Origin: Patescibacteria group bacterium
GTDB lineage: Bacteria; Patescibacteriota; Patescibacteriia; Patescibacteriales; UBA12465
NCBI GenBank assembly: GCA_041671365.1
Contig: JBAZBP010000001.1
Location: 325,518 to 389,517 of the forward strand
DNA length: 64,000 bases
Direction of reading: 5' to 3'
Part shown: positions 3,901 to 62,609 of the stretch, in pieces
Layout: each line of letters begins with the position of its first letter
Numbering within the stretch: the stretch's first letter is position 1
The notes under the pieces: model-generated
What the model saw: only the letters and a program-made list of their open reading frames with translations
Told to the model about the DNA's origin: nothing
Database searches by the model: none
Program-made: the position numbers and the translations under genes

Positions 3901-4903
3901 AGATTTACATTTAACTAATTCCGGCACTGATCATTTATTGATGATTTTAGATCCGGGGATGATAACCATTGAGGGTTTGCCCAATTCTCAGTGGCGTTAT
4001 TATAAAACAGAAATGATGTTTGACGATAATTGGCATCAAGCGACTTTAGTAGTTAATCAAATCGCTGATTATTGGGCGGTCTATATTGATGGACGGGAAA
4101 TAATTAGAGAAAGTTTTTTTGCCGATTTGGCCTCGTTTTCCGGAGTTGAAATGTATGATGATAACGGTTCGGCCTTATTTGATGAATTAGTTATTTGGAA
4201 TCGCCCTTTGGCTTCGACTGAAGTTTTAGCCAATTACTTAACTGATGCGCCTTATAGTCCCTTAATAATTCGTGAACCGCAAAGTGCGCCCGAGTTGCTC
4301 CATTCTTGGAAATTTGAGGAAGATGCCGGCAGCTTAGCGGTTGATAGTTTTAGTAGTTCTACTTTAAGTGTTAATCCTGCCTCTTGGGTTGGTCGCAGCC
4401 ATGATAATTATGCTTTGCGGATAAGTCAAGGGAACAGTTATTCTTTAGATTTTAATGAACCGATAATTTCTCAAGATTTGTCTTTAGCTTTTTGGTGGCG
4501 TAATAGCGCTTATCCGAGTATGGGAAGAATTAATATTAATTTGAATGGCGGTCTTGATGGTGGTTCTAAAATTTTAGCGTTACTGGCCGATTATTATCGT
4601 TTAGGTTATTGGTTTAATAATCAATATGGAATTTTATCGGAGGGGGTTAACGAGGCCGTTCCTTATGATGACGCTTGGCACCACTTAGCCTTAGTTTATG
4701 ATTCGTATCGTTATAAGTTAAATTTCTATGTAGACGGAGAGGTTAAGGCCAGCTCCTCGCTGGTGCGCTTAAAAGACGGAGAAGCGGTTAAACGCTTGGA
4801 AATTTCCAGCGATAATTTTAACACGGAATTAGACGACTTAAATATATATTCCGGAGCTTTATCCGTCGCTCAAATAAGGCAGATTTATTTAGATACTAAA
4901 TAA
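950..4903 (+). CDS. large secreted multidomain surface protein: N-terminal permuted papain-like (YiiX/C92-type) amidase, S/T/K-rich linker, 2 x lamin-tail domain (LTD), 2 x LamG/concanavalin-like domain
   Basis: Signal peptide MKKIKYIFGLIVFSLLLFVPALCRA.
Motif order is His before Cys (GHVGMYIG ... QWTCVGLAEKLYE).
LTD-like INRIYATGNNDFVELINTTDHDFDL and INKIYSTGDNDWLELFNPTDNDFDL.
LamG_3-like endings DELVIWNRPLASTEVLANY and LDDLNIYSGALSVAQIRQIY. Confidence 0.85.
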   Translation: MKKIKYIFGLIVFSLLLFVPALCRAMPPGTLLYRTSGAGKMYGYSADPLIYTEKGILKDIYAGHVGMYIGSENGEDYIVEAMSNGIVKTPAKYFVNSSAGEVFLGAKIPSAANDLQTAKVVALAKSLVGKNLGYDLDFKYQKGPKDGQWTCVGLAEKLYESANISNPNNLAALEYDSNYYAVDITPDGFDNYSVVNDAGDCFSAEREYSKIARKKNLLIPAPELIGFNVGLEYNGERYIFLPYTQFLQKTLQSVAVDITVASEFTGENIRAALNTNILALRWSLINNPLSTLKNLAQSAATFITQTAVKTGELAKSLGTKIFGENSLAEITLDPGAISGPNSTSTKKTVKTAATSTKKTTAVKSPANSAAPASWPAVKVNKATGNFATTKVVTPTKTTGQTSSSTKKTSVVSSTVKNIAETASKTPSAKSASSSIVKTGVNTTYYAPAVASSAASSRGSGGGGGSSSNSAIVANNWSKLAKINRIYATGNNDFVELINTTDHDFDLAAAGYRLERAKTADDPSLIMRLGDLDDGLYPGGTIIKAHGNYLIARADANPYYKNQAAAIALRDEFSWTGSGYTLYLGVGAISSSVDPDIIDAVGFGSDATFFQGSRPAPDINDNYILRRAASTGDNFVDFNLVLTDDPEVLAAMSAAQLATTTEEISTSTNDVATTTEEISTSTNDVATTTEEISTSTNDVATTTEDVASSSENVASSTSGTASTTEAVTPAPLALINKIYSTGDNDWLELFNPTDNDFDLAAAFYRLEKTKTAVTPSLLMRLGNPADGLYPGGTIIKARDNYLIVRDDANAYYKNQADAIALRDDFTWDNSGYTFYLGTGAISSSTDVNIRDLVGFGTDAIYWQGGGPAPAIPDNYILNRLSATNNNASDFNLILSDDPSIIFNPQPDANLNLFVQPVPILSSGLTNVWHFNECYGSGRWAVGKWDCAQEVGYTYDKFSRPLDTPASLNSFSASFYYKKSSQFPRLDLHLTNSGTDHLLMILDPGMITIEGLPNSQWRYYKTEMMFDDNWHQATLVVNQIADYWAVYIDGREIIRESFFADLASFSGVEMYDDNGSALFDELVIWNRPLASTEVLANYLTDAPYSPLIIREPQSAPELLHSWKFEEDAGSLAVDSFSSSTLSVNPASWVGRSHDNYALRISQGNSYSLDFNEPIISQDLSLAFWWRNSAYPSMGRININLNGGLDGGSKILALLADYYRLGYWFNNQYGILSEGVNEAVPYDDAWHHLALVYDSYRYKLNFYVDGEVKASSSLVRLKDGEAVKRLEISSDNFNTELDDLNIYSGALSVAQIRQIYLDTK
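2918..3043 (+). repeat. perfect 42-bp x 3 in-frame tandem repeat (ATTTEEISTSTNDV x3) inside the surface-protein CDS
   Basis: The unit gcgaccacgaccgaagaaatatccacgtccactaatgatgta occurs at 2918-2959, 2960-3001 and 3002-3043. A degenerate partial unit follows from 3044. Confidence 0.95.
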
Positions 4904-4946
4904 AAATGGTTCTATTTATTAAAATTTTATTTAATTTTAGTAAAAA

Positions 4947-4980
4947 ATACCCCAAAGATAAACTCTTTGGGGTATTTAAA
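4947..4980 (+). terminator. intrinsic terminator after the surface-protein gene
   Basis: Hairpin ataccccaaag-ataaact-ctttggggtat followed by a tttaaaa tail. Confidence 0.6.
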
Positions 4981-5031
4981 ATCAGCCTTTTCATCTTGCT
5001 TTTTTTTATCTTTTATTGTAGTATAAAGGCG

Positions 5032-5466
5032 TTATTAGGGTAAGCGGGCGATTACTTCTTTTTTTAAAATAGTTGGTTATTTTAGAATTTGAAGAGGAAA
5101 GTCCGGACTTCAATCCGACGCTGGTAGCGTCGGTAAAACGATAGTGGGTAACGCCCACCGGTCCGTTTCAACGGATTAGGGAAAGTGCCACAGAGACAAT
5201 ACTAATTCTGAAATATTTAACAGAATAAAAGGTGAAAAGTAATTGGATGAGATAGCTCGTTTTCACTGGTTAGTGGAAGCGAGTGAAGGCTACCGATTTC
5301 GGCCTCCGGTGACGGAGTGGCCGTGGTAAACCCTATCAGAAGCAAGAGCAAACTGGTATTTATTTATAAATACCAAGACAAGTAGCTCGCTTGAGCCCGT
5401 TAGTAATGGCGGGCCTAGATAAATGATCGCTAGAACAGAATCCGGCTTACGGCTGCCCTGATAACA
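5032..5466 (+). ncRNA. rnpB: RNase P RNA, bacterial type A
   Basis: Conserved motifs gaggaaagtccgg (P4 5' strand), agtgccacagaga, ggtaacgcccacc and acagaatccggctta (P4 3' strand).
P1 pairing between ttattagggta (5032-) and ggctgccctgataa (5451-5464).
Ends are approximate. Confidence 0.9.
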
Positions 5467-5490
5467 CCGAGTTAATAAAATAGTTTATAT

Positions 5491-6906
5491 ATGAGAAAAA
5501 TTGAATCGTTTTTTTCTATTTTGTTTGTTCCGGTTGATTTTATTTTTTTAGTTTTAGCCGGTATTTCCGCTTATTATTTAAGATTTTCCGCTTGGTCGGC
5601 CAGTCATTGGCCGATAACTTTAAATTTGCCGTTTCCGGGCTATTTAAAATCGGTTTTGTTTATCGCTTTTTTGTGGATTATAATTTTTATACTGGCCGGT
5701 GTTTATCAAATTCACAGTTCTCGTCGTTTGGCTCAGGAACTGCAAAAAATATTTTTGGCTTGTTCTACGGGTTTAGCTTTAGTAGCGGTTATTATTTTTT
5801 GGCAACGCGAATTTTTTGATTCGCGTTTTATTGTTTTAGTCGGTTGGCTGCTGGCGATTATTTATCTCAGTTTGGCTCACATTTTTATCCGTTGGTTACA
5901 ACGTTTTTTATTTTCCTATGGAATCGGTGTTCACAAGGTTGTTTTGATCGGTAATTCTAAAACGACGGAAAATTTAATCGCGGAATTTGCGAGCAATAAA
6001 AAATCCGGTTTTGAAGTCGTAAAACGATTGCGGGATTTTTCTTTGGAAACCGCTCAAGAATTGGTGGAATTTATCCGTGATCATGAGGTTAATGAAGTTA
6101 TACAAAGTGATCCGAATCTAAGCAAGGTTGAAACTTTACGATTATATGATTTTGCCAATGAAAATCAGGTTACTTTTAAATATGTGGCCGATTTATTGGA
6201 AGTTAAGGTTTTACGCACCGAAGTGGCGGAAATTATTGGTATTCCGATTGTCGAAGTAAAGCGCACCACTCTGGAAGGTTGGGGAAGAATTTTTAAGCGA
6301 ATTTTTGATATTATTGTTTCCGGTTTTTTGATTGTTATTCTGTCGCCGATAATTTTATTGGCCGTTATCGCCATTACCTTGGATTCACGGGGATCATTAT
6401 TTTTTTCGCGTCGTGACGACGGTTCTTATGTAACCCGCATTGGCGAGGGCGGCGTGCCCTTTAAGTATTTTAAATTCCGTTCCATGGTTCCTAACTCCGA
6501 TAGCATGCGTTACAATGAGTTAGCAGATCGTAATTTACGGACCGACGGGCCGATGGTTAAAATTAAAGATGATCCGCGAGTGACGCGCGTCGGTAAAATT
6601 ATTCGTCGCTGGTCAATAGACGAATTGCCCGAATTATTTTTAGTTTTTATCGGGCGGATGAGCTTAGTGGGACCGCGGCCGCATTTGCCGGAAGAAGTCG
6701 CCAAATATGAGAATTATCATAAAAAAACTTTAACGATCAAGCCGGGAATTACCGGTTTGGCGCAAGTTTCCGGCCGTAGCGATCTTTTATTTGAAGAAGA
6801 GGTTAAGTTGGATATTTATTATATTGAAAATTGGTCCTTGCTCTTAGATATTTCTATTTTATTTAGAACTCCTCTGGCGGTATTTAAACATCGTCAAGCG
6901 GAGTAA
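5491..6906 (+). CDS. polyprenyl-phosphate sugar phosphotransferase (WbaP/bacterial sugar transferase family), initiating enzyme
   Basis: N-terminal TM bundle and a C-terminal domain with FKRIFDI...SPI, FKFRSM, DPRVTRVGKIIRRWSIDELPEL, MSLVGPRP and KPGITGLAQV. Confidence 0.9.
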   Translation: MRKIESFFSILFVPVDFIFLVLAGISAYYLRFSAWSASHWPITLNLPFPGYLKSVLFIAFLWIIIFILAGVYQIHSSRRLAQELQKIFLACSTGLALVAVIIFWQREFFDSRFIVLVGWLLAIIYLSLAHIFIRWLQRFLFSYGIGVHKVVLIGNSKTTENLIAEFASNKKSGFEVVKRLRDFSLETAQELVEFIRDHEVNEVIQSDPNLSKVETLRLYDFANENQVTFKYVADLLEVKVLRTEVAEIIGIPIVEVKRTTLEGWGRIFKRIFDIIVSGFLIVILSPIILLAVIAITLDSRGSLFFSRRDDGSYVTRIGEGGVPFKYFKFRSMVPNSDSMRYNELADRNLRTDGPMVKIKDDPRVTRVGKIIRRWSIDELPELFLVFIGRMSLVGPRPHLPEEVAKYENYHKKTLTIKPGITGLAQVSGRSDLLFEEEVKLDIYYIENWSLLLDISILFRTPLAVFKHRQAE

Positions 6907-6956
6907 ATATAAAAATTCGTCGGCTCGTCCGGGGCGCACGAATTATAATCGATTTT

Positions 6957-8087
6957 ATGAAAGTAGCTCTTATTCATGACCATTTGGCCCAGGACGGCGG
7001 CGCGGAGAAAGTTCTTCAGGTACTGGCGGGAATGTTTCCAGACGCCCCTATTTATACTTTGTTGTATGAGCCTGATAACGTCAATAAATATTTTAAAGAT
7101 CGCCACATTGAAACTTCAATTATTCAGAAATTGCCGGGCGGCGTTAAGCATTACCAGTGGTATTTATATTTTATGCCAATCGCCGTGGAGTTTTTTGATT
7201 TACGTAAATTTGATTTGGTTATTTCCGATACCAGCTCTTTTGCTAAAGGCGTAATTACTGCGCCCGATTGTTTGCATATTTGCTATTGCCATACTCCGAC
7301 TCGATATTTATGGAGCGATACGCACCAATATATTAATGAGTTAAAGTATAACCGTTGGTTTAAAAAAATTATTTCTCTGGTTTTGAATCGGATTAGACTC
7401 TGGGATCGGGCGGCCGCCGATCGAGTTGATTTATTTATCGCCAATTCACGCACGGTTGAACGGCGCATTACTAAATATTATCGGCGTGATTCAACGGTTA
7501 TTTATCCGCCGGTGGAAACGCATAAGTTTTTTATTAGCGATTTAAAAGATCAGCCCGTCAATGATCGTTATTTTTTAGCCGGTTGTCGTTTGGCGCCTTA
7601 TAAACGGATTGATTTAGTCGTTAACGCTTTTAAACAGTTAGGAGTAAATTATAAATTAAAAATTTTTGGCGATGGTGTCGATTTAGAACGTTTACGAGAA
7701 ATAGCAGGAGACAGTTCTAATATTGAATTTTTAGGCCGGGTGAGCGAGGAAGTTAAGGCTCGGCTATTCAGCGGTGCCCAGGCCTTCATTAATCCTCAAG
7801 AAGAAGATTTCGGTATTACCGTGGTGGAATCAATGGCAAGCGGTCGTCCGGTTATCGCTTATCGCCGCGGAGGCGCGACCGAAACCGTTATTGCCGGTAA
7901 AACCGGACTATTTTTTGACGAAGCGACTGCTGAATCGCTGGCGAATGTTATTCGAAATTTTCGCTCCGAGGCTTTCAATTCGGAGGAAATTAGTCGCCAC
8001 GCCGCCAATTTTTCCGTAGACAATTTTAAAACTAGTTTGCAAGATTTCATTAATCAACATAAAAAAAGTTATGATAATCGGGGTTGA
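6957..8087 (+). CDS. glycosyltransferase family 4 (GT-B, Glycos_transf_1)
   Basis: EDFGITVVESMASGRPVIAYRRGGATETV (EX7E-type C-terminal motif). N-terminus MKVALIHDHLAQDGGAEKVL. Confidence 0.85.
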   Translation: MKVALIHDHLAQDGGAEKVLQVLAGMFPDAPIYTLLYEPDNVNKYFKDRHIETSIIQKLPGGVKHYQWYLYFMPIAVEFFDLRKFDLVISDTSSFAKGVITAPDCLHICYCHTPTRYLWSDTHQYINELKYNRWFKKIISLVLNRIRLWDRAAADRVDLFIANSRTVERRITKYYRRDSTVIYPPVETHKFFISDLKDQPVNDRYFLAGCRLAPYKRIDLVVNAFKQLGVNYKLKIFGDGVDLERLREIAGDSSNIEFLGRVSEEVKARLFSGAQAFINPQEEDFGITVVESMASGRPVIAYRRGGATETVIAGKTGLFFDEATAESLANVIRNFRSEAFNSEEISRHAANFSVDNFKTSLQDFINQHKKSYDNRG

Positions 8088-11484: not shown

Positions 11485-11486
11485 TG

Positions 11487-11570
11487 TGCCGCGAGAGGGA
11501 ATCGAACCCTCACTGAGTCGCCCCAACACGATTTTGAGTCGTGCGCGTCTACCAGTTCCGCCATCGCGGC
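11487..11570 (-). tRNA. tRNA-Leu (anticodon CAA), class II with long variable arm
   Basis: Reverse complement is gccgcgatggcggaactggtagacgcgcacgactcaaaatcgtgttggggcgactcagtgagggttcgattccctctcgcggca.
It folds as a cloverleaf with anticodon loop cuCAAaa and T-loop ggg-ttcgatt-ccc.
No encoded CCA. Confidence 0.92.
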
Positions 11571-23154: not shown

Positions 23155-23802
23155 ATGACTATTAAATTAGGTGTTCAGGTGCGAGAACCGAAAGAAAAAT
23201 TAAATTCAGATTTTATTCCCGGAGTTTTATATGGCAAGGGGCGAGAAAATCAAAATTTAAAGATTAAAAAAACGGAATTTGATAAAGTTTTTAAAAGCGC
23301 CGGCGAGTCAAATTTAATTGATTTAGACTATGGTACCGGAGCCGTTAAGGTTCTCATTAAAGATACGCAGCGCGATGTCATGAAAAATTTTTTTACTCAT
23401 GTCGATTTCTATCAAGTCAATATGAAAGAAAAAATTATGACGGAAATTCCCCTGCATTTTATCGGAGAATCTAAAGCGATTAAAGAATTGGGCGGTGTCT
23501 TAATTAAAGATATGAGTATTTTGGAACTGGAGTGCTTGCCCGGTGATTTGGTTGATCATATCGATGTAGATATTTCGGTATTAAAAACTTTTGACGATAC
23601 TATTAGAATCAATGATTTAAAATTGCCGTCCGGTATGAGTTTAGTGCATCATACTAATGAAATGATTGCCGCCGTTAGAGAGCCGAAGGTTGAGGCGGAA
23701 CCGGAACCGACTCCGGCGGCCGTGGAGGCGGGAACCGGAACAGCTCCGGTAACAGGCGCCGCGTCAACGGGAGAGGTTAAAAAAGAAACGGACAAAAAAT
23801 AG
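23155..23802 (+). CDS. rplY: 50S ribosomal protein L25/general stress protein Ctc (long form)
   Basis: IPGVLYGKG, a VLIKDTQRD....HVDFYQV pattern, and an acidic/Pro-rich C-terminal tail. Ends with TAG. Confidence 0.85.
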   Translation: MTIKLGVQVREPKEKLNSDFIPGVLYGKGRENQNLKIKKTEFDKVFKSAGESNLIDLDYGTGAVKVLIKDTQRDVMKNFFTHVDFYQVNMKEKIMTEIPLHFIGESKAIKELGGVLIKDMSILELECLPGDLVDHIDVDISVLKTFDDTIRINDLKLPSGMSLVHHTNEMIAAVREPKVEAEPEPTPAAVEAGTGTAPVTGAASTGEVKKETDKK

Positions 23803-32711: not shown

Positions 32712-34223
32712 ATGTCGGTTAATTCTGAATCTAATCCGGTTAACAACCTTCTGCCGCGAGTTGAAATCAGCGAGCATGAAGATCGTTTGAAAAAATTATC
32801 AGAGTTGGTTAAAGCGGGTATTAATCCTTATCCGGCCAAAGTTGAACGTGACCATGAAATTGCTGCGGTTATAAAAGATTTTGAAATCATGAGTACGGAT
32901 CAAAGTGTTTTTAATATTGTCGGGCGATTAAGATCCAAACGTGAACATGGTAATTTAACATTTGCAGATTTAGAGGATACTTCCGGTCGAATTCAGCTGG
33001 CTTTTTCCAAAAAAGATTTAGGGGTCGAGAACTATAAAAATTTTTTGAAATTTATTGATATTGCCGATTTTATCGCGGTCAGCGGCCAAGCTTTTTTAAC
33101 ACATAAAGGCGAGAAGAGCGTCATGGTAAAAAATTGGAAGTTGTTAACTAAAACTTTAAGACCGATTCCTGATTCTTGGTATGGATTAAAAGACGAAGAA
33201 GAGCGTTTGCGGAAACGTTATTTAGACATACTTTTAAATTCTGATGTTAAGGATATGATTTTAAAGCGGGCAAAATTTTGGCAAGCGACGAGAAATTTTT
33301 TATTAGCCAGAGGTTTTGTGGAAGTAGAAACTCCGGTTTTGGAAACTATGGCCGGCGGCGCGGATGCCAGACCGTTTCAGACTCATCACAACGCTTTAGA
33401 CCTTGATGTCTATTTAAGAATATCTACGGGTGAGTTATGGCAAAAAAAATTAATGGTGGCGGGATTTGAAAAAACCTTTGAAATTGGCCGCCAATTTAGG
33501 AATGAGGGCATGGATCCCGAACACTTACAGGATTATACCCAGATGGAATTTTATTGGGCTTACGCTGACTATAAAATGGGCATGGTTTTAACGGAAGAAA
33601 TGTATAAATATATTGCCCAAGAAACTTTTGGTACTCTTAAATTTAAAATTAAGAATTTTGAGATAGATTTGGGTAAAAAATGGGAAATCTATGATTACCG
33701 AGAGACGGTTAAAAAAATGACCGGTATTGACGTTTTAAGCGCCAGCGAAACAGAAATTGTTAGCAAATTGAAAGAATTAAAAGTTGAATATGATAAGAAA
33801 GGATTTAATATTACCAGAGCGGTAGATAATCTTTGGAAATACTGTCGAAAACAGATTGCCGGGCCAGGGTTTTTAGTCGGTACGCCGATAAGCGTTTCTC
33901 CTTTAGCCAAGCGTGATGAGAAGAATGATGCAGTTGCTCAAAGATTTCAGATTATTATCGCCGGCTCAGAAAATGGTAATGGTTATAGCGAGTTAAACAA
34001 TCCGCTTGATCAGGAGGAAAGATTTAAGGAACAACAAAAACTAAAAGAAGCAGGGGACGAGGAAGCTCAGAGTCATGATTATGATTTTGTGGAAGCTTTA
34101 GAATATGGTATGCCGCCAACCTGCGGTTTTGGATTTAGCGAGCGTCTATTTAGTTTTTTAATGGATAAATCGGTACGCGAATGTCAGATTTTTCCGTTGC
34201 TGCGTCCGAAAAAGGAAGATTAA
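32712..34223 (+). CDS. lysS: lysine--tRNA ligase, class II
   Basis: Class II motifs: FVEVETPVL, IGRQFRNEG and GMPPTCGFGFSERL. An OB anticodon-binding region lies at the N-terminus. Confidence 0.95.
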   Translation: MSVNSESNPVNNLLPRVEISEHEDRLKKLSELVKAGINPYPAKVERDHEIAAVIKDFEIMSTDQSVFNIVGRLRSKREHGNLTFADLEDTSGRIQLAFSKKDLGVENYKNFLKFIDIADFIAVSGQAFLTHKGEKSVMVKNWKLLTKTLRPIPDSWYGLKDEEERLRKRYLDILLNSDVKDMILKRAKFWQATRNFLLARGFVEVETPVLETMAGGADARPFQTHHNALDLDVYLRISTGELWQKKLMVAGFEKTFEIGRQFRNEGMDPEHLQDYTQMEFYWAYADYKMGMVLTEEMYKYIAQETFGTLKFKIKNFEIDLGKKWEIYDYRETVKKMTGIDVLSASETEIVSKLKELKVEYDKKGFNITRAVDNLWKYCRKQIAGPGFLVGTPISVSPLAKRDEKNDAVAQRFQIIIAGSENGNGYSELNNPLDQEERFKEQQKLKEAGDEEAQSHDYDFVEALEYGMPPTCGFGFSERLFSFLMDKSVRECQIFPLLRPKKED

Positions 34224-34252: not shown

Positions 34253-34323
34253 TCGGGGATCGTCTAACGGTAGGACTCCAGGTTCTGGTCCTGGCTATTG
34301 GGGTTCGAATCCCTATCCCCGAG
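34253..34323 (+). tRNA. tRNA-Gln (anticodon CUG)
   Basis: tcggggatcgtctaacggtaggactccaggttCTGgtcctggctattggggttcgaatccctatccccgag.
U1:A72 pair and G73 discriminator, as in bacterial tRNA-Gln.
No encoded CCA. Confidence 0.9.
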
Positions 34324-34328
34324 CTTAT

Positions 34329-34366
34329 AAAACAAAAAGGAATACAAACGTATTCCTTTTTGTTTT
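34329..34366 (+). terminator. intrinsic terminator after lysS/tRNA-Gln
   Basis: Perfect 17-bp stem aaaacaaaaaggaatac-aaac-gtattcctttttgtttt. Confidence 0.7.
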
Positions 34367-34381
34367 ATCATGTTTGAGATT

Positions 34382-34547
34382 TAGGGATTCGAACAGGTTG
34401 GAAGCGAGGCGCGAGAGACGGCGGAAGCCGGAACGAGCGGACGAGCGTCGACGAGCCCGAGCTGGCGTAGGGCTCGGCGCCAACTCAGGACAAGTGAGCT
34501 TTTCGCATTCCGGCGAAAAGCGAGCGCGATAATCCCTATCCCCGAGC
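34382..34547. other. GC-rich hairpin-dense element bracketed by tRNA-Gln-derived repeats (unknown function)
   Basis: Left end tagggattcgaac is an exact inverted copy of tRNA positions 34303-34315.
Right end aatccctatccccgagc is an exact direct copy of 34308-34324.
Internal hairpins lie at 34419-34430, 34452-34476 and 34498-34521.
The composition contrasts strongly with the flanks. Confidence 0.4.
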
Positions 34548-34553
34548 ATTATG

Positions 34554-34581
34554 AAAACAGCCCTGAAATAGGGCTGTTTTT
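34554..34581 (+). terminator. intrinsic terminator after the second tRNA 3'-end copy
   Basis: aaaacagccc-tgaaata-gggctgttttt. Confidence 0.65.
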
Positions 34582-34642
34582 AGCAGGGATTATTGAAACT
34601 TGGAACTAGTAATGCTAATATTAAAATAAATAATAAAATATT

Positions 34643-35041
34643 ATGTCTCAAATAATTATCGCTTCCGGCCCAGTTATAGTAGAAAATAATAAAGTTTTAT
34701 TAAACAAAGACGAGAAAGATAATTTTTGGAAGTTTTGCGGTGGCCGGATTGAAGAAAATGACGCCAATTTAAAAGATACCGCCAAAAGAGAGGCCAAAGA
34801 AGAAATGGGAATAGAGCTGGAAATATCGGACAATGATCCTTATTTCTTTTATACTGAAAAAGAAAAAGAGGGGAAGATGATTAGCATAGTACTAGTCCAT
34901 TTTCTTGCTAAAAGAAATGGCGAAATAATTCCTGGTCAAGAAACGAAAGAATGGCGCTGGTTTGATGTGAATAATTTAAACGGAGAGAATCTGGCTCCCA
35001 ATATTAAGCCGACTTTAAAATATTTCGGCTTTTTGAGATAA
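34643..35041 (+). CDS. NUDIX hydrolase
   Basis: Nudix box GGRIEENDANLKDTAKREAKEEMGIEL (GX5EX7REUXEEXGU). Confidence 0.85.
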   Translation: MSQIIIASGPVIVENNKVLLNKDEKDNFWKFCGGRIEENDANLKDTAKREAKEEMGIELEISDNDPYFFYTEKEKEGKMISIVLVHFLAKRNGEIIPGQETKEWRWFDVNNLNGENLAPNIKPTLKYFGFLR

Positions 35042-35186: not shown

Positions 35187-35402
35187 ATGGAAAGTCTAAT
35201 CGCTCTAAAAGATTTACGACTTAATATGGACAAATATGCCACTGAAGTGAAAGCCGGCAAATCTTTTATTGTTTTAAAACAAAGTAAGCCTCTTTTTAAA
35301 TTAAGCCCCGTCGACGAAGATAGTAGTTGGGAAGAGGTTATTAACTTCGCTAAAATTAAAAAGGGTGGCGTTAATATTGATGAACTTTTAGCTGTTTTAT
35401 AA
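35187..35402 (+). CDS. type II antitoxin (Phd/YefM-like)
   Basis: 71 aa. The N-terminal pattern LKDLRLNMDKYATEVKAGKSFIVLKQSKPLFKLSPV is typical of Phd/YefM antitoxins. The next gene follows after a 4-nt gap. Confidence 0.7.
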   Translation: MESLIALKDLRLNMDKYATEVKAGKSFIVLKQSKPLFKLSPVDEDSSWEEVINFAKIKKGGVNIDELLAVL

Positions 35403-35406
35403 TATT

Positions 35407-35652
35407 ATGGATAAAATCGCTAAAGCGTTAAAAAGTTTGTCAGTAAAAGAAAGAAAAATAATAAAGGGCATTCTTTTAAAAATAAAGAACGGTTCTTTGT
35501 CTGGGCTTGATTTAAAGAAACTGAAAAATTGCGATGATATTTTTCGTGTTAGAAGGGGAAAATTAAGAATAATTTTTAAAAAGCAGAACAATGGTCAATA
35601 TTTCATTTTAACTATTGAGAGAAGATCGGACAAAACATATAATAATTATTAA
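35407..35652 (+). CDS. type II toxin, RelE/ParE superfamily
   Basis: 81 aa. FRVRRGKLRIIFKK...FILTIERRSDKTY resembles the RelE/StbE core. My own reading of the printed sequence puts the stop 3 nt later (35655); the track coordinate is kept. Confidence 0.7.
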   Translation: MDKIAKALKSLSVKERKIIKGILLKIKNGSLSGLDLKKLKNCDDIFRVRRGKLRIIFKKQNNGQYFILTIERRSDKTYNNY

Positions 35653-35685
35653 ATAACCGTTCCAACCATATCACAAGCTCCGAGC

Positions 35686-35725
35686 TATAAAAATAAAACT
35701 AGCACAATGTGCTAGTTTTATTTTA
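35686..35725 (+). terminator. intrinsic terminator after the TA pair
   Basis: ataaaaataaaactagcac-aat-gtgctagttttattttat, extended by the outer pairing tcacaag (35670-35676) / cttgtga (35729-35735). Confidence 0.6.
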
Positions 35726-35868
35726 TCATCTTGTGAGTTGGGGATTCGAGTCCGAAAATATTGTTATATTTTTACTATTTTAGCAAACATATTGATTTTA
35801 TTGACCTAAAAAGTTCGAATTCATTCCACTATTTTTAAAATATTTGTTATAAGATATAATTAATTTAT

Positions 35869-36698
35869 ATGAATACAATACTTATAACTCCAAAAATTAA
35901 TCCAGATTTAGACGGTGTAGCCTGCGCCTATGTTTAATTAAAGATGGTCTTATTTTTAACCCAAAAATGGAGTTTGATAAATTCATTATTGTTGATGCTA
36001 GCGATATTAAAGGCATGCCAGAAGTAATTCGGGCTAAGGATGTAGTAGAAGTGATTGACCATCGCGAAACTCATAAAGCTAAGGAAGTATTTCCTAATGC
36101 AAAAATTCAAATAGAATTAGTTGGAGCTGCAGCTACTTTAATTTTTGAAAAAATGAGGGACGTTAAATTTCCCATAAACTCTAATAACATATTTTTACTT
36201 TTTGGTGCTATTTTTTCAAACACACTTAATTTTAAATCAGATATAGCCGGCGAGAGAGATTTAGGGGCAGTTAAGTCTCTAAAAGATAATTACGGAGTGA
36301 TTATTCCGTCAAATTTGATCGATGATATGTTTAAATACAAAACGGAGTATATAGCAAACAATTTAGAGGAAGTTATTAATGGTGATTTTAAAACTTTCGA
36401 TGGCGGCCTAGGTGTTGCTCAATTGGAGGGTTTTGATTTGCAGAACTTAATCGGTGACAAAATTGAAAATATAAAAGAAATTTTGAAAAAAATTAAAGAA
36501 AAATTTAATTTGGAATATATATTTTTGACGGCTGCAGATATAAAAAATGAATATAACATCTTTGTCGTTATAGATAAAAAAACAAATTCATTACTTTCTA
36601 AATCGATAGGCTTGTCTTTTAATGACAAGGGAGTCGCTAAAAACAATAAACTTTTTTTAAGAAAACAACTCCTACCTCTATTGATTAATCAACTCTAA
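35869..36698 (+). pseudogene. DHH-family phosphoesterase (family II pyrophosphatase-like), disrupted
   Basis: A 22-codon N-terminal piece MNTILITPKINPDLDGVACAYV ends at TAA (35935-35937). The main ORF 35967-36698 is in another frame and carries VIDHRETH (a DHH-motif variant). About 40 residues expected between the two pieces are missing. Confidence 0.55.
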
Positions 36699-60899: not shown

Positions 60900-62609
60900 A
60901 TGAACCTAATAAATAAATTAAAACCTAAAAATTTATCAGCCTCATTTTGGGGTTATGCCTTAGTTATTTTGGCGATTATCGCTCCCTGGTTTTTAAAGCC
61001 TGGTTATTTATTTATGACCGATATGGTTTGGGGACCGAAAATTAACCTTGATTGGACCGGTTCCTGGTTTTTATTTAATTTACTGGTTAAAAGTTTATCT
61101 TTTATTTTTCCCATAGATTTTCTGGAGAAAATATTTATTAGCGGCGTCCTTATTTTAATTTTGCTGGGCGGTAGTTTATTGACCAAAACGATTTTAGAAT
61201 TTGACGAGGTCGAAATGGCTGTTCCGGCCGCTCCAGCCCGCGGTCTGGTCTTTATTCTTAGCTTATTCGCCCTATTTAATCCTTTTGTTTATGACCGGGC
61301 GCTTTATGGCCAATTCGGGGTCATTCTTTCCTATGGCTGTTTATTATTTGTGGCCGCTTATCTCCTGCGGGTTTACCGGAATTTAGATTTTAAAAGTCTT
61401 TATGCGGCGGCAATTTTTACGGCTCTCGCTTTATTATTTTCTGTTCATTTTATTTTTCTGCTCGCTCCTTTTTATATTTTATTTTTAGGCGCGCTATTCT
61501 TGAAACGACAAGAAATTAAAGCTGGCGGAAAAAGCAAAAAATTCTGGCTCGCTTTGTTTTTTTCTTTCCTTATAGTTTTAATTATAAACGCTAATTGGCT
61601 GTTAGCTATCGCCGTTAAAGCTTCGCCTCTGGCTACTTTCGTTCAGCAGGGAATTACCGCCCAGGATCTGGCTGCTTTCCAGACGGCCGGCAAAACTCCG
61701 CTTCAAACTTTTACTAACGTTCTTTTGATGAGCGGTTTTTGGGGGAAAGATCAATTTCGTTATTTTGATTTGACGACCGCGCCGAATTGGCAATTCAGTT
61801 TTATTTTTCTGGCGCCCGTAATTTTTTATGGAGTTTATTTAAGTTTTAGGCGTCGGAGCCGGCGGGAAAAAATTATGAGTGCCGTCCTATTAGTAATTTT
61901 TAGTTTAGCGGTTTATCTCGCCGTAGGCATTAAATCTCCGTTGACCGGCGGCTTGACGATATTTTTATATAATTACTTGCCTTTATATAAAGGATTGCGC
62001 GAGCCGCAAAAATGGGTCGCGGTCATTATCCCGATTTATTTATTTTATTTGACTCTTGGCACTCGCCGTTTAAAAGACAGTAAGCTTATTTCTAAAAATA
62101 TTCCGGTCAGTGCGTTTATTTTTTCGGCCGTTATAATTATGGCGGCGCCGTCTTTGTTCTGGAGTTTTAACCGCCAGGCCGTGCCCACGCCTTATCCGCA
62201 AGACTGGTACTCTGTAAATCAATTACTTCTTAATCGTTCCGCTCAGTCTTATGGTTGTAATGATAGAATTTTATTTTTACCCTGGCATATGTATATGAGT
62301 TTTAATTGGGTCGGGAAGATAATCGCTAATCCCGCTTCGACTTTTTTTAGTTGTCCGGTTTTAAGCGGAACGAATATGGAGTGGGGCGGAATCTATGATA
62401 ATAGCCGGAGCGTTGACGGCGCGGCCGTTTCCGCCTGGCTCGCGGCGCAAGGGAAGAGCGGTTCTCCGGTTTTGTCGGTAACACCTATTCGTTATATTAT
62501 TTTAGCGAAAGAACTGGATTTCCGTTCTTATCTTTGGATTAATAATTTATCCTATATTCGGCCTCTTTTAGAAACGCCGACATTACTGGTTTATGAAATT
62601 AAACCTTAA
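60900..62609 (+). CDS. polytopic membrane protein (GT-C-like, function unknown)
   Basis: Many TM helices followed by a soluble C-terminal region. Lies within a glycan cluster. Confidence 0.45.
   Translation: MNLINKLKPKNLSASFWGYALVILAIIAPWFLKPGYLFMTDMVWGPKINLDWTGSWFLFNLLVKSLSFIFPIDFLEKIFISGVLILILLGGSLLTKTILEFDEVEMAVPAAPARGLVFILSLFALFNPFVYDRALYGQFGVILSYGCLLFVAAYLLRVYRNLDFKSLYAAAIFTALALLFSVHFIFLLAPFYILFLGALFLKRQEIKAGGKSKKFWLALFFSFLIVLIINANWLLAIAVKASPLATFVQQGITAQDLAAFQTAGKTPLQTFTNVLLMSGFWGKDQFRYFDLTTAPNWQFSFIFLAPVIFYGVYLSFRRRSRREKIMSAVLLVIFSLAVYLAVGIKSPLTGGLTIFLYNYLPLYKGLREPQKWVAVIIPIYLFYLTLGTRRLKDSKLISKNIPVSAFIFSAVIIMAAPSLFWSFNRQAVPTPYPQDWYSVNQLLLNRSAQSYGCNDRILFLPWHMYMSFNWVGKIIANPASTFFSCPVLSGTNMEWGGIYDNSRSVDGAAVSAWLAAQGKSGSPVLSVTPIRYIILAKELDFRSYLWINNLSYIRPLLETPTLLVYEIKP

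Follow-up and report, generated by a model that had tools for sequence, protein, structure and literature searches.

Non-coding RNAs with tRNA-like parts include transfer-messenger RNA (tmRNA) with its tRNA-like domain, bacterial YrlA, mascRNA and the viral tRNA-like structures. Folded DNA signals are known as well: the attachment (att) site attP of CTX phage is a folded single-strand recombination site, the integron attC consensus places the core sites R'' (RYYYAAC) and R' (GTTRRRY) on a bulged hairpin of 57-141 nt, and the single-strand origins (sso) of rolling-circle replicons and the minus-strand origins of filamentous phages are non-coding, hairpin-dense, orientation-specific and ~130-300 nt long. 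On a larger scale, tycheposons are integration islands at tRNA genes with repeats of partial tRNA sequence (bioRxiv 10.1101/2020.12.28.424599). The element described here lies next to a tRNA-Gln gene in a 64,000-nt stretch of a Patescibacteria genome (contig JBAZBP010000001.1, positions 325,518-389,517; the whole 64-kb stretch, with a mean GC of 0.37, is called the window below). It behaves like an orphan GC-rich structured RNA motif, like a miniature passenger of a tRNA-targeting integrative system and, in its closing helix, like a folded att site, and is a member of none of these classes.

Positions 34382-34547 of the window are one member of a previously unannotated element family, for which we count 16 copies in 11 genomic contexts, all in Patescibacteria metagenome-assembled genomes (MAGs) or metagenome contigs. 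With middling confidence, we read the element as a structured small RNA of the + strand, carried on a module of ~225 bp that spreads at sites resembling tRNA 3' ends. That it is an RNA we infer from its being a GC island in an AT-rich genome, from its GNRA loops and G·A motifs, from its conserved junctions and from the coexistence of subtypes. What we rate as new is a family of structured elements with an unusual clamp made of tRNA ends and a cassette-like spread. In the window, the genes for lysyl-tRNA synthetase (LysRS) and a NUDIX hydrolase (34643-35041) bracket tRNA-Gln(CTG) and a 419-nt spacer, arranged as follows:

32712-34223: the LysRS gene.
34253-34324, + strand: tRNA-Gln(CTG), called by ARAGORN and the Rfam tRNA model (53.9 bits); the left copy of the repeat O is formed by its 3'-terminal 17 nt (34308-34324).
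34327-34368, + strand: T1, an AT-rich 19-bp hairpin with A and T tracts and the shape of a bidirectional terminator, which starts the module.
34369-34381, + strand: the leader, containing TTTGAGA (34373-34379), which is imperfectly complementary to the acceptor 3' strand TCCCCGA, and after it a 2-nt linker.
34382-34394, + strand: X', TAGGGATTCGAAC, made up of the 5' strand of helix P1 (34382-34389) and a conserved CGAAC junction.
34382-34389 with 34531-34538, + strand: P1, TAGGGATT/AATCCCTA, the closing helix.
34396-34401 with 34480-34485, + strand: P2, which encloses P3 and P4; five of its six pairs are changed on both sides among copies, and ~95% of the aligned cells pair.
34404-34446, + strand: P3, in which a GCGAG...CGAGC base with tandem G·A carries an inner stem; its tetraloop is GGAA (34423-34426).
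34447-34480, + strand: P4, CGAGCCC/GGGCTCG (34452-34476) on a GCG/CGC base.
34494-34525, + strand: P5, a separate hairpin (GTGAGC-TTTTCGC-ATTCCG-GCGAAAA-GCGAGC) with a 9-bp stem and a tandem G·A motif at its base.
34531-34547, + strand: O, AATCCCTATCCCCGAGC, made up of the 3' strand of P1 (34531-34538) and a 9-nt tail.
34554-34580, + strand: T2, a GC-cored hairpin followed by a T run.

The sequence features which the earlier note had read at this locus were borne out. The 17-nt direct repeat AATCCCTATCCCCGAGC is exact (34308-34324 = 34531-34547), where shuffles lead one to expect 0.15 matches with up to three mismatches permitted; the 13-nt inverted copy is likewise exact (34303-34315 against 34382-34394), and the two downstream copies pair over 8 bp (34382-34389 with 34531-34538). 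All three internal hairpins are present (CGGC-GGAA-GCCG, 34419-34430; CGAGCCC/GGGCTCG, 34452-34476; GCTTTTCGC/GCGAAAAGC, 34498-34521), as are both flanking hairpins proposed to be terminators, one with a 19-bp stem (34327-34368) and one with an 11-bp stem and a T run (34554-34580); a simple terminator scan called neither, owing to its own criteria. The 80-nt GC maximum, 0.74 at 34368-34549, is the highest of the window, and this island is intergenic, while the two highest-GC other islands read (23646-23797 and 62362-62498) lie inside coding regions. The element is 60% purine on the + strand. No exact TCGGGGA stands ahead of the second tRNA-end copy, again as described; the degenerate TTTGAGA (34373-34379) found there by eye pairs at 5/7 positions, and its RNA duplex with the tail, at -3.2 kcal/mol, is not significant against shuffles. 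Folding of the region, which the earlier note had proposed as a check, beat shuffles on both strands (z = -4.2 and -4.5). A 693-nt contig from an independent ENA assembly (L001) is identical in sequence to the window copy, which argues against an error peculiar to one assembly. The break in that assembly falls exactly within X' (window 34389), which would fit a repeat or a polymorphism in the population here.

Further copies were collected with a pattern scan anchored on the two tRNA-like ends only, with a free gap of ~100-160 nt between them, and with a covariance model (R1) built from seven copies. In metagenomes the scan gave six matches at five loci (eight copies on inspection), and in species-representative genomes five loci, all in Patescibacteria MAGs, one labelled Falkowbacteria and one probably mis-binned as Gammaproteobacteria. 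The covariance model found exactly one copy in the window and added divergent copies in L004, L007 (its second copy) and L017 as well as a strong copy in L025; it also matched real tRNAs, solely via P1 and the tail. Copies are 135-178 nt long, with a GC content of 0.56-0.68 and 55-63% purine, and their identity to the window copy runs from 85% (L002a) down to 59% (L004). All begin with TAGGGAT(TC/GA)GAAC, of which L017 and L025 have variants, and end with (A)ATCCCTATCCCCGAG(C), with single-base variants in L007B and L025. Between these ends, the 120-150 nt differ in sequence and keep one branched fold, P1-P5. No Rfam 15 family (4227 models) was found on the core at gathering thresholds or, within the window, at E-values up to 10, and none matched the element copies at eight other loci. 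Neither the element nor motif B (a 27-nt island repeat described below) nor the recombinase of L023 had a match in the IMG/VR, phage and plasmid collections; the bare 17-mer matched two unrelated high-GC viral contigs (L026, L027), neither of which holds an element.

The fold is maintained among the copies, as assessed on alignments from Infernal models. For seven copies, RNAalifold predicted 37 pairs, 19 of them compensatory. When 13 distinct copies were aligned to the model, 93.4% of the cells formed standard pairs, as against 32-39% when the 3' partners were slid by 1-3 columns and 77.7% in column shuffles; changes on both sides were seen in 23/37 modelled pairs, and the observed covariation score was reached by 0/500 shuffles. 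Covariation extends to every modelled pair of P3 (6/6; model helices 3 and 4) and, as changes on both sides, to 10/11 pairs of P4 (model helix 5), for which GAAGCTCC/GGAGCTTC, GACCTGCC/GGCAGGTC and AAGCCCGCC/GGCGGGCTT are compensatory examples. In P5, compensatory variants were read by eye from the A7 alignment: TTTGGCGC/GCGCCAA in L011, CTCCGCCC/GGGCGGAG in L025 and GCGGAC/GTCCGC in L002d. No reading frame is conserved among the copies, and the indels and length differences between close copies are not multiples of 3. A conserved structure with compensatory changes, as expected of a structured non-coding RNA in general, is thus present.

Mismatches of the form 5'-GA-3'/3'-AG-5', set in a CGAG context, break up many of the helices; they are candidate tandem sheared G·A pairs and account for the recurrent words GCGAG, GTGAG and ACGAG and for the purine skew. 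Terminal loops are frequently of the GNRA type (GGAA, GAGA, GAAA, GGGA, GCAA), and both these loops and the CGAG-context tandem G·A pairs are restricted to the + strand. The minimum free energy of the + strand was below that of the - strand in 8/8 copies, and the helices contain seven G·U against three A·C. From these features we conclude that the + strand, the same as that of tRNA-Gln, is the folded one, and that RNA is its most likely form.

The tRNA-derived repeats are the element's own conserved ends and not local duplications. The earlier note had taken the 13-nt inverted segment for a copy of the neighbouring tRNA's T arm; it is instead the 5' strand of P1, present wherever the element is, since Gln-type ends recur away from tRNA-Gln. 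Elements occur at sites without tRNA-Gln in L003, L004, L007, L008 and L010, Gln-type ends stand after protein genes and motif B in L003, L002b/c and L010, and copies stand in tandem in L002c-d, L007A-B and L009. In L008 a Gln-type element lies directly 3' of a His-like tRNA with a group I intron. This intron (RF00028, 86 bits; L008 4096-4397, on the same contig as L006 2437-2740) is itself an observation from a Patescibacteria MAG; it sits in the anticodon loop of the tRNA (GTG), which ARAGORN missed. X' is kept in nearly all copies (variants in L017 and L025), and O is found in all of them (substitutions in L002d, L007B, L009 and L025), its 9-nt tail reproducing exactly the acceptor 3' strand of tRNA-Gln together with the discriminator G and the C after it. 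O also follows the local variant of tRNA-Gln: L025 has CCCTG in place of CCCTA in both tRNA and element, and in L009 both end in GAGA. Our prediction is that elements are restricted to genomes with a tRNA-Gln ending in AATCCCTRTCCCCGAG.

The leader, in turn, complements the acceptor 3' strand, with a degeneracy that varies from copy to copy. The complement is perfect in L007B (9/9, GCTCGGGGA, plus an extra hairpin) and in L009 (7/7), and pairing is strong in L007A, L010, L002d and L011. In L004 it extends into bases of the T-stem 5' strand and T loop and lengthens the closing helix to ~16 bp. Taken together, leader and X' therefore repeat the whole tRNA-Gln 3' end in inverted orientation. The complementarity in L007 also crosses the upstream hairpin into bases that are not of tRNA origin (CCCGC/GCGGG), and two alternative pairings thus exist.

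The element travels as part of a module of ~225 bp, consisting of the AT-rich hairpin T1, the leader and the element, with ...GAGC as its exact boundary at either end; ahead of the element there is always an AT-rich hairpin (T) and then a leader of ~13 nt. Between the copies L002a and L002c, near-identity spans exactly the stretch from GAGC| to |GAGC, one standing after tRNA-Gln and the other after a protein gene, and L009 is a perfect 226-bp tandem. In flanks compared by eye, the outer arms of T1 were conserved, and the inner stem showed complementary changes in L002a and L002c. Three subtypes coexist in the single array of L002. A hairpin and leader of almost identical sequence (TAAATAAAAATAGAGGCTAaTAGCCTCTATTTTTATTTCATCTT) are shared by L003 (~3960-4010), L008 (~4445-4494) and L025 (8126-8174), whose cores are of different subtypes; the flanking NUDIX proteins that were compared (L003 and L008) are only 73% identical, and recent exchange is therefore implied. 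Conversely, L002 and L011 hold different subtypes (a-type and b-type) at orthologous sites, with upstream proteins 79-86% identical. Between relatives, the module is thus present, missing or exchanged, and duplication can place it in tandem or at a second site.

The site beside tRNA-Gln is a particular focus of this variation. Relatives of the window genome, with LysRS ~83-85% identical in L012-L017 and L023, share the upstream order GT-GT2-DUF192-Wzy_C-GreA-LysRS and diverge immediately 3' of tRNA-Gln, where the following was found:

L012-L016: a terminator and no element.
L024: a hairpin, a leader and TGGGGATTCGAG..., with no core, i.e. an empty module.
L017: a divergent element.
L025: an a-type element.
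L023 (closest by LysRS, 85%): a 512-aa large serine recombinase and a rolling-circle/inovirus-type Rep.

The earlier note had proposed looking for an empty site in relatives; tRNA-Gln without the element in L012-L016 and the empty module of L024 supply it, with the caveat that the T stem of tRNA-Gln differs in L012-L016 (L012 and L016 by name). The genes of L023 occupy 4393-7824 and encode a recombinase with Resolvase, Recombinase and Zn_ribbon domains and a Rep of the ORF2/G2P type (PF23343); the end of the recombinase gene overlaps the antisense of tRNA-Gln. The covariance model found no element on this contig, which ends before the far junction of the L023 element. Present, absent and swapped content at tRNA-Gln makes the locus an integration hotspot. 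Three further observations concern the empty sites. In L016, a 26-nt sequence (CGAGCCAACGTAGATTAAGCGAGGTT) is duplicated in tandem immediately 3' of tRNA-Gln (5583-5640); L012 has a hairpin GTAAAACTG-ATTCGAA-CAGTTTTAC with a T-loop-like loop (5637-5661); and a stray GTTCGAATCC at 5694-5707 of L012 is also found in the window at ~35814. Elsewhere, the 10 nt that follow O in L010 (3029-3038) are the same as the 10 nt that follow tRNA-Gln in L023 (4454-4463), ATTGAAGAAA, and may be a remnant of integration next to the element.

Downstream of the element, the window holds an island of 1.4 kb made up of the element, the NUDIX gene and a toxin-antitoxin-like pair, with these further features:

34585-34606, + strand: a degenerate X'-like motif, AGGGATTATTGAAAC, then a TTGGAAC box, within the predicted NUDIX promoter and aligned with L003 and L008.
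34643-35041, + strand: the NUDIX hydrolase gene (Pfam PF00293, E = 1e-16), the first protein cassette of the island.
35187-35402 and 35407-35652, + strand: two small open reading frames (ORFs), toxin-antitoxin-like, the first with a weak Phd/YefM match (17.7 bits, below the Pfam cutoff).
35659-35685, + strand: motif B, GTTCCAACCATATCACAAGCTCCGAGC, a 27-mer resembling a tRNA 3' end, which closes the island.
35686-35726, + strand: the hairpin T3, then a leader and TTGGGGATTCGAGTCC (35738-35753), an empty module without a core.

T2 is homologous to hairpins 3' of the element in L003 and L008, where the promoter stretch after it is conserved too; a promoter scan predicted TTGAAA-17-TAATAT after T2, upstream of the NUDIX gene. 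The empty arrangement of the T3 type also stands 3' of tRNA-Gln in L024, and the DNA just 3' of the window's empty module (~35760-35870) is homologous to that after tRNA-Gln in L012. Motif B, with the consensus GTTCCAAnnnTATCCCAAnCTCsGAGC, was found in 17 copies in the islands of nine contexts (window, L002, L003, L007, L008, L010, L011 and L017 among the loci), once in the window. Its order is nearly always gene end, B and terminator hairpin, and it is confined to islands near elements; it aligns with the tRNA-Gln 3' end of L012 and resembles a tRNA-Gln 3' end that has gained a short insert. A second class of terminator, GAGC-AAaTAGACAAaAaTACCAC...GTGGTATTTTTGTTAT, follows both O and B in L002, L008, L011 and L017. 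NUDIX genes of three subfamilies adjoin elements in four contexts (window 34643-35041; L002 6651-7094, - strand; L003 3190-3723, - strand; L008 4695-5270), an adjacency that could be chance, a bias in island cargo or a real link. A functional link to NUDIX was not adopted: five loci with NUDIX homologues lack the element, and the NUDIX proteins of the window and L008 share only the Nudix box. Elsewhere in the window, the RNase P RNA (class A, 5036-5464, 179 bits) and a tRNA-Leu(CAA) (11486-11570, - strand) are ordinary.

When compared to the described systems, the locus shares with tycheposon islands the recurrence of tRNA-3'-end fragments (O and motif B) along the island with cargo genes between them, a heterogeneity greatest beside the tRNA, and a recombinase-bearing element at the same tRNA in a relative (L023). 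It differs in that the repeat-flanked segment is only 206 bp, gene-less and covarying inside, that an inverted tRNA-end copy pairs with the direct one, that the element also occurs away from tRNA-Gln, and that the recombinase is a large serine type and not a tyrosine integrase; a conserved repeat of its own (motif B) and non-coding structured elements as 'cargo' set it apart from tRNA-seeded islands in general. The single-strand origins and minus-strand origins are similar in conserving structure above sequence, in having several interchangeable types and in the Rep found at the same tRNA in L023, whereas the elements are chromosomal, lack a Rep or double-strand origin nearby and are closed by tRNA-derived sequence. 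As in tRNA-like RNAs, the 3' end is an acceptor 3' strand with discriminator adjacent to a T-stem-like helix, with a matching 5' acceptor strand in some copies (L007B 9/9, L009 7/7); unlike in these RNAs, the T loop is replaced by a core of ~120-150 nt, there is neither a D or anticodon arm nor a tag ORF, no Rfam family matches, and the acceptor pairing is degenerate in many copies, including that of the window. With integron attC (PMC2727003) and with CTX-phage attP the element shares imperfect inverted repeats around a variable centre, conserved ends with varying interiors, strand-specific folding and arrays of cassettes each followed by such a site. However, RYYYAAC...GTTRRRY is absent, the ends being GTTC...GAAC, no link to IntI or Xer was found, the centre is a conserved multi-branch fold with conserved junctions in place of a freely varying loop, and the cassettes carry their own promoters and terminators. 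Orphan structured RNA motifs found by the GC-IGR approach (PMC6429828, PMC8632094, PMC11109978) are likewise GC-rich intergenic islands with covariation in AT-rich genomes; the element is absent from Rfam 15, and its tRNA-end closing helix, its terminator-to-GAGC module and its arrays are unusual among them.

Several specific identities were considered and set aside. ARAGORN and cmscan (RF00005) call a tRNA only at 34253-34324, and the element has only a T-stem-like helix and the acceptor 3' strand. ARAGORN found no tmRNA in the window or the loci scanned, and several copies per genome argue against one. For attC, the ends GTTCGAATCCCTA...TAGGGATTCGAAC have the opposite polarity to AAC...GTT and the interior is branched; no tyrosine recombinase was present among ~30 neighbouring proteins scanned (4-10 kb per locus). 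A guide of the bridge-RNA or omega-RNA kind was dropped, as the target flanks are not matched by any conserved segment of an internal loop and genes for IS110, IscB or TnpB are absent nearby, and no reverse transcriptase suggestive of a retron or diversity-generating retroelement was seen in any locus. Searches of the literature on tRNA-like RNAs or integrons of Patescibacteria turned up nothing pertinent.

The small non-coding RNA with a T-arm/acceptor mimic, one of the possibilities raised by the earlier note, fits best: the covariation and the conserved tRNA-Gln-like ends agree with it, and its transcription we infer. In such a scheme, the module would spread by recombination at sequences resembling the tRNA-Gln 3' end (O, motif B and other tRNA ends), and its own tRNA-end copy would regenerate the target, making arrays possible. 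The RNA might be released from read-through or polycistronic transcripts, trimmed by tRNA-type end processing in copies with a good leader-tail stem, and act in trans, serving either the host or the mobile elements that make use of this tRNA site. A number of points weigh against it. A sigma-70 scan recognised no promoter for the element, a terminator-like hairpin stands only ~13 nt upstream of it, and a -10-like TATCAT occurs in just some copies; TTCGAA-16-TATAAA was dropped as a promoter, as its transcript would start inside T1. The acceptor-like stem of leader and tail is weak in the window copy (-3.2 kcal/mol), the G·U evidence for the strand is thin (7 vs 3), and GNRA-type loops and sheared G·A pairs are stable in DNA too, so that the same fold is compatible with single-stranded DNA. 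The 5' strand of the closing helix fully complements the tRNA 3' region including T-loop bases (16 bp in L004, 9+8 bp in L007B), which looks more like a double-stranded att-site copy than like tRNA mimicry. Moreover, 16 copies from one bacterial group, collected with end-anchored scans, under-sample both diversity and distribution.

The main rival to a small RNA, which we consider possible, though unlikely, is that the element is a folded single-stranded DNA site (att or origin) of a mobile element targeting tRNA-Gln. With the + strand single-stranded, X' and the leader would anneal to O and rebuild the double-stranded tRNA-Gln 3' region as an att site, in the manner of integron attC or CTX-phage attP; the branched core would be a variable terminal structure or an sso-like complementary-strand origin, and the short modules would derive from full elements, as their solo ends or in miniature form. 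The serine recombinase and Rep (PF23343) at the tRNA-Gln of the closest relative, the inverted copy of the tRNA 3' end in leader and X' (perfect in L007B, reaching into T loop and T stem in L004), the L007 complementarity beyond tRNA-derived bases, the lack of an evident promoter by scan, the strand asymmetry of the fold, the mosaic and interchangeable modules and the 10 nt shared by L010 and L023 all speak for it. Serine recombinases, however, cleave both strands of duplex DNA, and a hairpin substrate would not yield their normal product; no recombinase or Rep lies within any element-bearing island sampled, no element was found on the L023 contig up to its end before the far junction, the virus, phage and plasmid collections gave no matches, and the integron core-site consensus is absent. 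Conserved junctions, and three subtypes within the L002 array, are also unexpected of a mere spacer. A further reading, which we regard as speculative and quite improbable, is that Patescibacteria carry an integron-like cassette system anchored at tRNA-Gln. Its cassettes would be protein genes or non-coding folded segments, each ending in O or B and followed by a hairpin and X'; the folded strand would rebuild an att site around the core, insertions would regenerate the target, letting arrays grow with no linked integrase, and a recombinase such as the serine recombinase of L023 would act in trans.

An att-site scar had also been proposed by the earlier note; an inert scar of this kind, or a decaying piece of tRNA-Gln that is functionless in itself, is very doubtful as an account of the insert, while the att reading holds for the locus. 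A direct repeat of the tRNA 3' end (34308-34324 = 34531-34547) does flank a short gene-less segment, with motif B closing the larger island, empty sites exist in L012-L016 and an empty module in L024, and the synteny break and the L023 element mark this place as an integration hotspot. The flanked 206-bp segment contains no recombinase and no conserved ORF, and its 136-nt core is under selection for structure and therefore not an inert scar: compensatory substitutions keep five helices intact among copies whose identity to the window copy is 59-85%, the same ends are also found at sites other than tRNA-Gln, and distinct subtypes are conserved between genomes. It is hardly more probable that the element is a cis-regulatory leader (riboswitch or attenuator) of the downstream gene with T2 as expression platform. 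The order of structured domain, terminator hairpin and same-strand gene suits this, as does the proximity of NUDIX genes in four contexts (window, L003, L008 and L002, the last on the opposite strand); yet the other downstream genes are unrelated (PEP-utilizers, inositol monophosphatase, TfoX_N, opposite-strand genes and one small ORF without a Pfam match, membrane-like by sequence), a promoter-like site follows T2, tandem copies have no gene between them, and five NUDIX-homologue loci lack the element. Such heterogeneous downstream genes and tandem copies led us to reject a riboswitch. The idea of a captured high-GC fragment or chimeric assembly, or of a small protein gene (a 74-aa ORF on the - strand or a 52-aa ORF on the + strand), is close to negligible. 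It would account for a GC of 0.63-0.74 in a genome of 0.37 and for the open frames at 34325-34549 (-) and 34374-34532 (+). The identical sequence in a second assembly and 15 further homologues in AT-rich Patescibacteria contigs refute capture and chimerism; close copies differ by indels whose lengths are not multiples of 3, none of the + frames is open consistently, and open - frames are expected on a pyrimidine-rich strand.

If the element is an RNA, as we read it, it would be a new class of structured RNA from the candidate phyla radiation, a group in which non-coding RNAs have hardly been explored, and one of unusual design, in which the tRNA-Gln 3' end and its complement form a duplex that clamps a branched GA-rich core. 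A site acting at the DNA level, on the other hand, would represent a new type of folded signal for recombination or replication and would explain how small flexible islands are built beside tRNA genes in reduced genomes. Specialists in RNA motifs and in mobile elements are those likely to be interested. In either case, the covariance model, the module boundaries and the 27-nt motif B allow these islands to be mapped systematically and their mobility to be tested.

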